From Candidatus Nanopelagicales bacterium (GTDB lineage: Bacteria; Actinomycetota; Actinomycetes; S36-B12; UBA10799): DNA of 49,261 nucleotides. Location of the stretch: NCBI GenBank assembly GCA_041674545.1, contig JBAYVO010000002.1:1-49261 (forward strand). The letters are read 5' to 3'. This document shows positions 42,858 through 45,900 of this stretch, in pieces. The notes under the pieces are model-generated. The model made no database searches, was not told the DNA's origin, and worked only from the letters and a program-made list of their open reading frames with translations. Position 1 is the stretch's first letter. Each line of letters starts with the position of its first letter. Made by a program: the position numbers and the translations under genes.

Positions 42858-42911
42858 TGGAGAAGTCCTTCTGGTAGGGGGGAAATCGTGTCATTGACTC
42901 GTCGACTCACA

Positions 42912-45900
42912 TCAGAAATAGTTGAAGACTGACGATCCGCGACCACTGATCTGAGTCATCACGGCTGTCTTAAGTACCGCTCCCTGCTGCAAGACTCCTT
43001 GCCCCTTCAGCATCGCCTTTCGGGTCCAGGCAGCAACTCCCTTGCCAAGTCGCGACTCCCTCACATAGGAGACCGCAGCCTTGATCGTCGGGGTGAAGTT
43101 CATACCGATGGCGCCACCTACGGCACCACCAGCGAGCTGGAACAGCGGCTTGAGCCCAAGTCCGGTGTACGAATCAAAGGCGTCGCCAGCGAGTCCTCCG
43201 ACACCCCACCCAACCGTGGCTCCAGCGAATCCCTTACCCGAGGACGTGCCAATCGAGATTCCGGCTTCCTTTATCGCCGGGATGGCTTCTTGCTTCATGA
43301 CGGCAGCAACCTTGCCGGAGGCGTCTTCAAGTCCGGTCGCCACTGTTTGACCGACCGACGTGATTGTTGCTGGGACGTTCTGCAGAGCCGTCACACCTTG
43401 CTCAAGCGTTGCTTGAGCATTGTCCGCTACGGTCTGCAGCGCTTCGCCCAGATTGTTGGAAGCTCTACCAAAGTAGTAGCCAAGTCCACCGGCGATTCCC
43501 GTGAGCGTGGCACAAATGCCGTTGAAGCTCCATGTGAGCGAGTTGTTCATGCTTACATGCCCGTAGGTAGTGATCTCCTCCGAGAGGAAACCCATTCCGT
43601 AACCCTCGAGGGCGTACATGGCACCTACGATGATGCTGGCCCATGCCCCGCCCTTGGCAAAGTAGTTGAATTTCATCATGCCCTTGAACATCGCAACGCC
43701 AAGGGCGCCCGTAACGAAAGTCCACGCGACGGCGAAGAAACCCGCACTGACCGCATCCATGCCATGGTGGCCGCCTGTCAGTCCATTCTTGATCCAATCG
43801 CCCATGGCCGTGGTCCCGCTGGCATCCGAGAAATTGACTGGATCGCCGTTTCCGTATGAGTACTGACCTGCTCCGGCAGCAACCTTTGGATCAGGCTGCA
43901 TGAACGTCCCTAGGTCCCGACTAAATGCTCGAACACCCACCGTCGACAATCGCGAGCCGGGCATATTGGCCGTTGACGGGTCGCTGTTTCCGATCTGTTC
44001 ACCGTACGGTCCGACGAACTCAGGCGCCCGGTCTCCTCGGCTTCCGTCGGCAGCTATCTTGAGCTTGCCAATGCCCGAGAGACTCGGAATCGTCAGTGTC
44101 CCGCCTTCGATCGCTAGTCCGCCGGCCAATGTGATCATGATGGCCGCGTCGTTGTCGGAGTACAAAACCCGTGGCGAACCGCTTGGTGACGAGTAGCCAA
44201 GCTTGATCGTCTGAGTCTTCGGTCCTGCATCGGCACCTGGCGCTGGCTGCGCCGGGGAGGCCTCCGTTGGCGCAGGTTGATCCGTCGATGCAGATTCGCT
44301 TGGTGCCGGTTCGACAGACTCGTCACCACTCGGGATTGCAGGCGTAGGTGGCGCCTGTGGATCCGGCTGCTCGGTGGCGGAAGCCACCGGTGCTTCTGGC
44401 TCCGTTGGTGCTGTGGCGGACGCGGCAGGGTCCGCTGGGACCGCTACCTGTGCGTCACCGGATTCAGTAGGTGCGGTGGAATCGCCTTCAACCTCGCCCG
44501 CGTTTCGCTGTGGTTCATCCACAGGCATGGGAATCGCGGGGACGTTCGCTGCAACATACTGATCAAGAATCTGATTCTGGTTGGTTCCCAGTTTGCGGCT
44601 CTTGGCCAACAGCGCCCTCGCGTCCTTCCACTGCGCGTTCGACAAGCTCACCGGTGCAACCGTTGGTGCGTTCATCGTCTGCTCGTACACGCGACCGCTT
44701 AGATCGCGCTTGAGTTCGAGGATTCCGCCATCCGGTGTTGTCGCCCTGCTTAGCTGCTCAGTTGCGTCATATTGCAGGTTCATGTTCCCGATTTGGGTGT
44801 AGTTGCCGTTCTTGTCCCACGAATTGTCAGGAATCGCTGCCTGAGGATTGGTGGTGGAGACCACACGATCATTCGCGTAGGTGTACGAGTAGTGGCCTGG
44901 GAGCTGATTGCAGTCCTTCGGCGTATCGCCTGGGTTTGCAATCCCCGCCGCGGAGCAGATTCTCCTACCGTCTTGATCGTAGCCGTAGTTGAAGTCCACT
45001 CCAGCAATCGTTGCGCGCTTGAGGACTGTCCCACCTTGGTAGTTGTACTCCGCCTTCTCGCCGGCAAACTCGGTCGATAGCAATGACTGACCCAGCGTGG
45101 TCTTGATCGATTCCTCGATCTTTTGCCCTGACTTCAAGGTCCAGGTCTGGCCCTCGAGTTGGGCGTTGTTGTCGTAGCGTGGTTGTAACGACATCGCGAT
45201 GTCGGGGTACTCGACGCGCTTCAGCTGCATTCCATTGCCTGGGCCGGCATCTCCCCAAGTAGTGCGCTGGACCACAATCCCGCCAAGTGCGGTTGATGTC
45301 ATATAGCCCAATTCGTTGTAGCCGTTCCGAATCGTGATGGACTTTGCTTGTTTGCCGTCTTGCGGGGCTGCCGTGACAATTTCGTCAGTGATGTTGCCCT
45401 TCGGATCCATAACAAACTCGCTGCGGGTCCCGATGGCGTCTTCGTAGGTCTCAACTTGTTGAGTCCTATTGACCGTCTGCTTGACCGTATGGTCAGGCTC
45501 GCCCTCAGTGCTGGTGACAGCGGTACTTGAGGTGAATGCATCACCAGGTGTCCGCAGGAGATCGTGCGTATAGACCGTCTCGATCTCGGGCTTACCGTCG
45601 CTGCCCGCAGTAACAGCCTTCGTCTGTCGGTACATTTCGTCGCGCCACGTACAACTCCAGTTTCCTGAGTTCACGTTTGACGTGTTGCTAGTTCGAGTAC
45701 ACGAAACCTGGCCATACTGGTCGCTGATCATGGTGCTCACCCGACCGCTGGCATCTGTGATGCTCTTAAGTGACCCCAACTGTTTTGCATCGAGCAAGTA
45801 GTCCGGGATCTGTCCGAGCTCGGCGAGATCAGAGTCCCCCGGCGTCTCGTCAACGCCCCAGTACTCAAACGTGGATGACGATCCAAGCGCAGAGGTCACC

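Follow-up and report, generated by a model that had tools for sequence, protein, structure and literature searches.

In the window, a 49,261-nucleotide stretch of landfill metagenome DNA from an uncultured Actinomycetota host (Candidatus Nanopelagicales bacterium, contig JBAYVO010000002.1), we examined a gene for an RHS/YD-repeat lipoprotein and, above all, the 299-residue C-terminal domain (CT) that follows its RHS core. A neighboring gene is 94% identical to one in an uncultured Actinomycetota metagenome-assembled genome (MAG) and 75% identical to one in a Candidatus Nanopelagicales MAG. What was observed directly is the anatomy of the CT, the conserved catalytic triad in front of it, the lack of an enzymatic signature and an immunity gene, and the more rapid divergence of the CT relative to the body. 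By analogy with characterized effectors, we tentatively read the CT as an autoproteolytically released, non-enzymatic, membrane-inserting payload, functionally like the CT of Tse5 (Tse5-CT) or the C-terminal domain of BiTLP, and give this reading somewhat less than an even chance.

The core end of the protein reads VRAFSRDLGTFMQPDPKVAAGAGQYSYGNGDPVNFSDASGT and includes GNGDPVNFSDASGT (amino acids 1584–1597, window positions 43812–43853). Residues R1558, D1571 and D1593 (numbered on the 1,896-residue open reading frame, ORF) are spaced R-13-D-22-D, as is canonical for the RHS aspartyl autoprotease, and none of them varies among the six sequences of the family described below. Their counterparts in BiTLP are R2103, D2116 and D2140, and mutation of the Arg lowers cleavage (PMC13018210). 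Cleavage of the window protein is predicted after T1597; an intact autoprotease implies that the CT is cut off, as a payload would be.

Taken by itself, the window protein carries the RHS label weakly. It scores 20.6 bits against Pfam RHS_repeat (cut-off 22) and 31.9 bits against Rhs_assc_core (TIGR03696; amino acids 1550–1596, cut-off 32.5), both too low, and 20.0 bits against NCBIfam YD_repeat_2x, over the cut-off of 15.8. The assignment is settled by the profile scan of all six family members, every one of which matches Rhs_assc_core (best E 4.7e-12), with weak yet consistent matches to YD_repeat_2x in three (best E 4.1e-10), so that at the family level the profiles make the label secure. 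On its core domain and catalytic triad, we assign the protein to the RHS/YD superfamily, with a shell fold that is putative. The database form of the protein, P0001, begins at the ATG at 48560, has 1,882 residues and differs from the window protein at two of them; this ATG is the likely start of the window gene as well. All six family members have a lipoprotein signal peptide, and in the window protein it stands where a PAAR domain was sought and gave no match in Pfam or NCBIfam. A 106-residue low-complexity insert directly precedes the last ~130 residues of the RHS region, the core domain; every one of the six members has its equivalent, and no other part of the body is so poorly conserved. 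To our knowledge, canonical Rhs shells lack an insert of this kind.

The CT covers amino acids 1598–1896 (window positions 42915–43811; 30.5 kDa) and consists of 17% Gly and 14% Ala. An earlier sequence-only reading of this stretch had described three hydrophobic helices after the core motif of a 299-residue hydrophobic domain, and this description holds, though the helices (H1–H3) are weakly hydrophobic. Their summed Hessa free energies, taken over the best 19-residue windows, are +1.1 (H1), +5.0 (H2) and +4.6 kcal/mol (H3), and they are therefore marginal as Sec stop-transfer helices; the summed scale stood in for a topology predictor, is crude and does not separate a payload from an anchor. 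The CT helices contain 45–70% Gly/Ala/Ser/Thr, with summed Hessa values from +1 to +8, and their marginal hydrophobicity would suit a secreted membrane-inserting protein better than a stop-transfer anchor; it resembles that of proteins which start out soluble or bound to a chaperone and enter membranes afterwards. H3 is the best conserved segment of the CT, with G98, A101 and G105 invariant in all six members. The amphipathic Ala/Gln/Thr-rich stretch that had been noted behind the helices is real: CT residues 117–192 have a mean helical hydrophobic moment of 0.32, in comparison with 0.165 ± 0.034 in shuffled sequences, none of 1,000 reaching 0.32. The claim of GxxxG-dense segments stands in part. 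Glycine-zipper runs are present (G197-G201-G205-G209 and G228-G232-G236), and the GxxxGxxxGxxxG run is found at the same aligned position in P0001–P0003, but the enrichment over composition is marginal (13 GxxxG motifs against 8.4 ± 2.5 expected, p about 0.05–0.07), and the relaxed small-xxx-small motif shows none in the CT. A distant 1,820-residue paralogue has a comparable or longer Gly run in the same tail region, and P0004 a single GxxxGxxxG.

No enzymatic family matched the window CT in Pfam, NCBIfam, PADLOC or the PDB, in agreement with the sequence-only reading, which had seen no nuclease, deaminase, ADP-ribosyltransferase or peptidase motif: Pfam and PADLOC gave no enzymatic domain, NCBIfam merely a 15-bit match far under its cut-off, and the PDB no significant chain match. 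The remote-homology search that had been proposed also returned no family match and marks the CT as an orphan domain. Exhaustive phmmer against 1.84 billion representatives found only P0002 (E 6e-53, 41% identity), itself a family member. Word-indexed searches found nothing, whether the query was the single CT or a profile of the six CT sequences, and the single-CT run missed even its own protein; because the word prefilter fails on such a Gly/Ala-rich query, we relied on the exhaustive search. Sub-threshold Pfam matches to the Gly-zipper families C19orf12 and MccV appeared in the CTs of other members, not in that of the window protein, and were rejected as compositional.

AlphaFold2 modeled the CT, from a four-sequence alignment, as all helical at a predicted local distance difference test score (pLDDT) of 34, and the model was otherwise unusable. 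For amino acids 704–1896, the mean pLDDT was 36.7, with beta-hairpin arrays at 50–70 in two stretches and the CT helical at 20–40; at this confidence the model is uninformative on whether the CT lies inside or outside the shell. When it was compared with the PDB using Foldseek, 12 of the 14 top matches were Rhs effectors (8uy4, 8qja, 7pq5), teneurins and the teneurin-like 9ifo, and TcB-TcC structures (6sup, 6l7i, 6sue), all with TM-scores of at most 0.12, which lends weak support to an RHS-type local structure in the model.

A full-length search recovered four proteins only: the window's own (P0001), P0002 (58% identity), P0003 (57%) and P0004 (30%), all of them from Logan or ENA metagenome assemblies. 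The contig of P0004 (locus L004) carries two further tandem paralogues of 1,820 and 1,659 residues, and the family is known from these six metagenomic sequences alone; a search with the family alignment found no relative in 185,579 GTDB species genomes or in JGI metagenome contigs. The lipobox, the R/D/D triad and a CT opening with three hydrophobic helices are common to all six proteins. Five of them also have the amphipathic stretch and the Gly-rich hydrophobic segment, and the sixth has an acidic Pro/Ser-rich tail instead. This last is the third of the tandem L004 paralogues (1,820, 1,790 and 1,659 residues; L004 4378–20381, forward strand, spacers of 160 and 28 nucleotides), whose tails diverge past the three-helix module and which in this third copy lack the Gly zipper. 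Over the family, the CT ranges from 21 to 32 kDa. A PhD/ParE toxin-antitoxin pair lies directly after the L004 paralogues (L004 20665–21176).

The CT evolves 1.6–3 times faster than the body. Between the window protein and P0002 or P0003, the body is 61–62% identical and the CT 35–40%; among the L004 paralogues, the figures are 54–67% and 17–43%. Identity falls from 62% to 40% and from 67% to 43%, with a drop past the core motif in sliding windows, and homology remains; the CT is thus fast-evolving yet not swapped. In P0002 and P0003, the three-helix module is still 64–81% identical.

The sequence-only reading had found nothing but a ribosome-binding site in the 54-nucleotide gap behind the RHS gene, followed by the gene of a 707-residue lipoprotein, and we confirm both (Table 1); the corresponding gap measures 12–13 nucleotides in the orthologous loci L001 and L003. 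ORFs of at least 30 residues around the CT and the gap encode Arg-rich out-of-frame products typical of GC-rich DNA. Scanning positions 27000–49261 for short ORFs with hydrophobic segments gave nested or antisense ORFs, a lipoprotein signal, a segment of the upstream gene cut by the window end and, in an intergenic gap at 28003–28194, one 63-residue ORF with a single hydrophobic segment. A hidden immunity gene in the form of a small hydrophobic ORF was rejected on these grounds. CT swapping and adjacent immunity were both tested and neither was found; on these sequence comparisons the window protein falls outside the polymorphic-toxin class, which is defined by a swappable CT and adjacent immunity (Zhang et al. 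2012).

A classical antibacterial polymorphic toxin would call for an immunity protein somewhere, and two places for it can be considered. The sequence-only reading had named the 707-residue or a 175-residue lipoprotein, and for the 707-residue protein there is something to be said: in three loci its gene comes right after the RHS gene, at a distance of 12–54 nucleotides; as an exported lipoprotein, it is located where it could encounter a membrane toxin that is exported too; and a lipoprotein immunity family, Imm65, is on record (PMC3482391). However, the 707-residue protein is 74–77% identical across loci and does not covary with the CT at 35–40%, which makes it an unlikely cognate immunity protein, and with 707 residues it is 7–10 times as long as known membrane-toxin immunities, two-helix transmembrane hairpins of 72–100 residues. 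Locus L004 has a single 707-like gene, encoded on the opposite strand, for three RHS paralogues that differ in their tails and have no gene between them, and this 3:1 ratio fits toxin-immunity pairing poorly. The conservation of its gene neighborhood suggests that the 707-residue protein is a partner in a fixed set of exported pentapeptide/NHL proteins and is unlikely to be a typical immunity protein; the proposal is disfavored, and we consider it very improbable that this protein or the 177-residue lipoprotein of the operon is the cognate immunity. Immunity might instead be provided by an unlinked small membrane protein elsewhere in the genome, with the CT acting as proposed here. Such an arrangement is what one would generally expect of RHS proteins whose autoprotease is intact, and the window covers 49 kb of a 161-kb contig. 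Against it stand six genes in four loci, all without linked immunity, which would be unprecedented beside the TLPs (teneurin-like proteins, "almost all" paired; PMC13018210), Tse5 and the ionophores of contact-dependent inhibition (CDI); it would also be difficult to keep unlinked immunity for three tandem paralogues whose tails differ. We regard this explanation as improbable, if a little less so than the previous one.

In the payload reading, the RHS protein would be exported through Sec and lipid-anchored, carrying an all-helical non-enzymatic CT that the aspartyl autoprotease severs from the core after T1597 and that the shell, acting as a chaperone, holds at least in part off the membrane of the producer. 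Once released, the three Gly/Ala-rich helices and the Gly-zipper hairpin would enter a target membrane and dissipate its potential or permeabilize it, and the co-conserved pentapeptide/NHL lipoproteins could be a surface apparatus that presents or triggers the RHS protein. With no cognate immunity gene beside the RHS gene, the producer would be protected by sequestration or by its own lack of the target or receptor. Several results weigh against such a payload. None of the six RHS genes in the four loci is followed by a small or polytopic ORF, and every characterized membrane-depolarizing polymorphic toxin in the literature consulted (PMC10684867, PMC9637101 and PMC13018210 among it) comes with an adjacent small transmembrane immunity protein. 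The CT is homologous in all six proteins despite ~30% body identity; it is family-specific and not polymorphic, which weakens the classical framing as a polymorphic toxin, and when the six CTs were searched by tblastn in the window and every locus, they returned only themselves and no orphan cassettes. At 1.21 cubic angstroms per Da, a packing like that of crystals, 30.5 kDa occupies at least 36,900 cubic angstroms, and the shell cavities of Tse5, RhsA and Rhs1 measure 32,000–35,000 and that of BiTLP 44,000 cubic angstroms, with cargoes of 10–16 kDa (PMC10684867, PMC9637101, PMC13018210); the authors of the TLP study take the average C-terminal domain of 15 kDa as the cavity limit (PMC13018210). 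In addition, H1 with the three Lys behind it resembles a stop-transfer signal on a Sec substrate, and both AlphaFold2 models (pLDDT 34 and 37) are uninformative.

Many of these observations speak for a different arrangement, in which the CT is a resident membrane domain of a non-toxin RHS protein. Its helices would be integrated by SecYEG into the membrane of the producer with the N terminus out and the C terminus in, and the YD shell would be an ectodomain on the surface with a tether at either end; at or in the cytoplasmic face would lie the amphipathic stretch, the Gly-zipper hairpin and the basic tail, and the whole would form a teneurin-like adhesion or signaling device with the pentapeptide/NHL complex. 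The strongest point in its favor is that CTs of 21–32 kDa are too large for the known shell cavities. It also agrees with the absence of following immunity genes and of orphan cassettes, with a CT never swapped across the divergence of the bodies, with operon partners that are all lipid-anchored or Tat-exported and more conserved than the RHS protein, and with the teneurin-type NHL domains encoded next door. In the window clade, charges are distributed in keeping with the positive-inside rule: three Lys occur in loop 1 of the window protein and P0003 (one Lys and one Asp in P0002), loop 2 has no basic and one to three acidic residues, and a conserved Arg/Lys stands past H3; the tail carries a net positive charge in the window protein but is close to neutral in P0002 and P0003. 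On the other hand, the catalytic Arg and both Asp are invariant, whereas metazoan teneurins, the only YD-shell proteins known to have the C terminus outside the shell, lack the motif (PMC13018210), and cleavage at the core end would cut the anchor off its shell. The helices are poor stop-transfer segments, H1 contains Glu residues in two of the three L004 paralogues, and loop 1 departs from the positive-inside pattern in that clade. The protein is already tethered by its N-terminal lipid anchor, and in the literature consulted we found no bacterial precedent for a resident RHS membrane domain. We think an anchor possible, though we would sooner doubt it than believe it. Its more specific form, in which the shell is the ectodomain of a doubly anchored protein (lipid at the N terminus, polytopic at the C terminus) within a "split" teneurin-like adhesion/signaling complex and the CT is a transmembrane and cytoplasmic signaling module, appears unlikely, if far from negligible. 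Payload and anchor are not separable by sequence, and both survive, as do the corresponding alternatives of the sequence-only reading, a pore-forming payload with immunity encoded elsewhere and a C-terminal membrane anchor: the triad and the marginal helices favor the former, and the fixed CT, the missing immunity, the size and the charges the latter. We place the released payload slightly ahead, by a small margin, since there are precedents for it in bacteria and it accounts for the conservation of the protease.

By analogy, the function of the protein would most resemble that of Tse5 and BiTLP if the CT is a toxin, and that of teneurins if it is an anchor. Tse5 (PA2684), a type VI secretion system (T6SS) effector from Pseudomonas aeruginosa, likewise combines an Rhs shell and aspartyl autoprotease with a non-enzymatic hydrophobic/amphipathic helical CT, the shell chaperoning a membrane cargo; Tse5-CT is an integral-membrane pore former held inside the Rhs shell, and it must be cleaved at D1141 to be active (PMC10684867, PMC9637101). 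However, Tse5-CT has 149 residues (16 kDa) in comparison with 299, Tse5 is delivered by a PAAR-like N terminus and VgrG/T6SS whereas the window protein has a lipoprotein signal in a presumably monoderm actinobacterium, and the two-helix transmembrane immunity protein Tsi5 has no equivalent at the window locus. The CT and Tse5-CT share no PDB or database similarity, the sole Tse5 match being to the shell at E 3.4. The C-terminal domain of BiTLP, from Bacillus inaquosorum, is hydrophobic with a predicted transmembrane segment and permeabilizes Escherichia coli only when given a signal peptide (PMC13018210). TLPs resemble the window system in their Sec-exported surface YD shell (with signal peptidase II signals, as lipoproteins, in some phyla), the R/D/D motif, the teneurin-type NHL in the system and a rare, widely scattered occurrence that includes Actinomycetota (PMC13018210). 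They differ in having the FN-plug, NHL and YD shell in one polypeptide, whereas here the NHL domains belong to proteins of their own encoded downstream, and all six RHS proteins are without a match to NHL or TEN_NHL; lacking the NHL domain, the RHS polypeptide is not a TLP in the published sense. In addition, TLP C-terminal domains average 15 kDa, are highly polymorphic and almost always come with an immunity gene (PMC13018210), whereas those of this family are 21–32 kDa, fixed and unaccompanied.

Tox-WTIP is another non-catalytic, predicted membrane-spanning toxin domain after RHS repeats (PMC3482391), but membership of the CT was rejected as both signatures of this proteobacterial domain, the two-helix RxxR and Wx[ST]IP, are missing. 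The CDI ionophores (CdiA-CT of the EC93 family) and the LXG protein EsxX of the type VII secretion system (T7SS) also place a helical membrane-depolarizing domain, with a glycine zipper in a hydrophobic helix, at the C terminus of a large delivery protein. Their scaffolds belong to the type V secretion system (T5SS) and the T7SS, the CDI toxins are strongly polymorphic with two-helix transmembrane immunities of 72–100 residues, and EsxX is neutralized by dedicated immunity families; no sequence similarity between the CT and either was detected. In Tc toxins, the TcB-TcC RHS cocoon with its aspartyl autoprotease encloses a cargo of ~30 kDa, is part of a multi-component system that includes a beta-propeller and acts on non-bacterial targets, which is why no immunity gene is needed. 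That cocoon, however, is made of two proteins totaling about 2,100 residues and docks on the TcA channel, and its cargoes are enzymatic and hypervariable; nothing TcA-like and no second RHS partner was detectable at the window locus. Metazoan teneurins have a membrane-tethered YD shell, an NHL propeller, a C-terminal region of ~300 residues outside the shell and no immunity gene. They differ in their N-terminal transmembrane helix, the lack of an autoprotease motif and a soluble ABD/Tox-GHH end (PMC13018210), whereas the window protein has an intact motif and a hydrophobic CT.

The family breaks the rule of RHS/YD shells, which is to carry swappable toxins together with immunity genes, in three ways: its cargo is fixed, it is twice the usual size and it has no immunity gene. 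The autoprotease is nevertheless retained, and the gene lies in a conserved operon of giant pentapeptide/NHL proteins that are exported. As a toxin, the CT would be a new membrane-active domain and would show how a monoderm can send a membrane attacker out via Sec with no immunity devoted to it. As an anchor, it would provide a bacterial counterpart of the teneurin layout, with the C terminus outside the shell, and would bear on the repurposing of toxin containers as receptors; a doubly anchored non-toxin protein would be the first bacterial non-toxin use of the RHS shell.

Table 1. Features of the RHS/YD-repeat lipoprotein gene and its operon in the window
Feature	Position	Strand	Remarks
RHS/YD-repeat lipoprotein gene	42912–48602	−	ORF of 1,896 aa from GTG at 48602; stop codon 42912–42914
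Lipoprotein signal peptide MIEKTAFGNRTSRVYAVVAGLVSLSLLASAC	48468–48560	−	Lipobox ASAC; read directly from sequence
Low-complexity insert	44217–44534	−	106 aa, Pro/Ala/Ser/Thr/Glu-rich; inside RHS region, directly before core domain
RHS core end VRAFSRDLGTFMQPDPKV...GDPVNFSDASGT	43812–43934	−	Triad residues and Rhs_assc_core match
CT helix H1 AVSAGFFAVAWTFVTGALGVAMF	43686–43754	−	23 uncharged residues, Kyte-Doolittle (KD) hydropathy 1.75; then Lys-rich loop KGMMKFNYFAK
CT helix H2 GGAWASIIVGAMYALEGYGMGFL	43584–43652	−	Internal Glu, KD 1.28; then acidic loop
CT helix H3 LTWSFNGICATLTGIAGGLGYYFG	43467–43538	−	Weakly hydrophobic, KD about 1.07; then conserved basic residue
Amphipathic helical stretch, CT 117–192	43236–43463	−	76 residues, Ala/Thr/Gln/Val-rich; hydrophobic moment; helical in model
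Two Gly-zipper hydrophobic segments	43083–43232	−	GFAGATVGWGVGGLAG (43185–43232), PLFQLAGGAVGGAIGMNFTPTI (43083–43148)
Basic C-terminal tail	42915–43082	−	9 Lys/Arg and 1 acidic residue in 56 aa
Intergenic gap, 54 nt	42858–42911	−	GAAGGA Shine-Dalgarno; no plausible ORF, no terminator-like site on coding strand
707-aa lipoprotein	40734–42857	−	Lipobox LLATAC; pentapeptide repeats aa 437–491
Rest of operon	29718–40718	−	Tat-signal 1255-aa NHL protein, two pentapeptide + teneurin-type NHL lipoproteins (one with fn3), 177-aa lipoprotein

The operon partners of the RHS gene are all exported. A twin-arginine signal, TRRRFL, marks the 1,255-residue protein, which also has C-terminal NHL repeats, lipoboxes are present in the other partners, and TEN_NHL is found in the separate proteins of 961 and 1,374 residues. 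The window, L001 and L003 have the gene order in common: RHS, ~707, ~1,257, ~915 (pentapeptide and NHL) and ~1,310–1,374 residues (pentapeptide and NHL, with or without fn3), a comparison that covers the RHS gene and four partners, as the fetched loci end before the 177-residue gene. Between loci, the 1,255-residue protein is 68–71% identical, the 961-residue protein 70–79% and the 1,374-residue protein 73–76%, so that all four partners, including the 707-residue protein, are more conserved than the RHS protein at 57–58%. Locus L004 has the same gene set rearranged, with one 707-like gene (32% identical) and one 1,255-like gene on the other strand and the NHL protein upstream. Judged by their domains, the RHS and pentapeptide/NHL proteins together resemble a teneurin-like set of domains distributed among several genes.

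The gene upstream of the RHS gene (48744–49261, reverse strand) is cut by the window end; in L005 it encodes at least 177 residues, with one hydrophobic segment, SALSAFVSSSLLVMGIGAV. It matched no family, and no conserved copy of it lies upstream of the L003 RHS gene. At that locus, a response regulator and a membrane histidine kinase lie directly upstream of the RHS gene (L003 6201–9739). In the window, a GerE-family protein (27288–28001, reverse strand) is 36% identical to the L003 response regulator, and a large AAA-LuxR regulator is encoded near the operon (20489–23227, reverse strand); the RHS operon may be under two-component control. A 497-residue protein (25581–27074, reverse strand) consists nearly entirely of pentapeptide repeats (Pfam E 3.7e-82) with a single N-terminal hydrophobic segment. 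Farther away, a 924-residue secreted enzyme (9607–12381, forward strand) combines LPMO10, GH5 cellulase and CBM2 modules, which fits a cellulose-degrading landfill actinobacterium.

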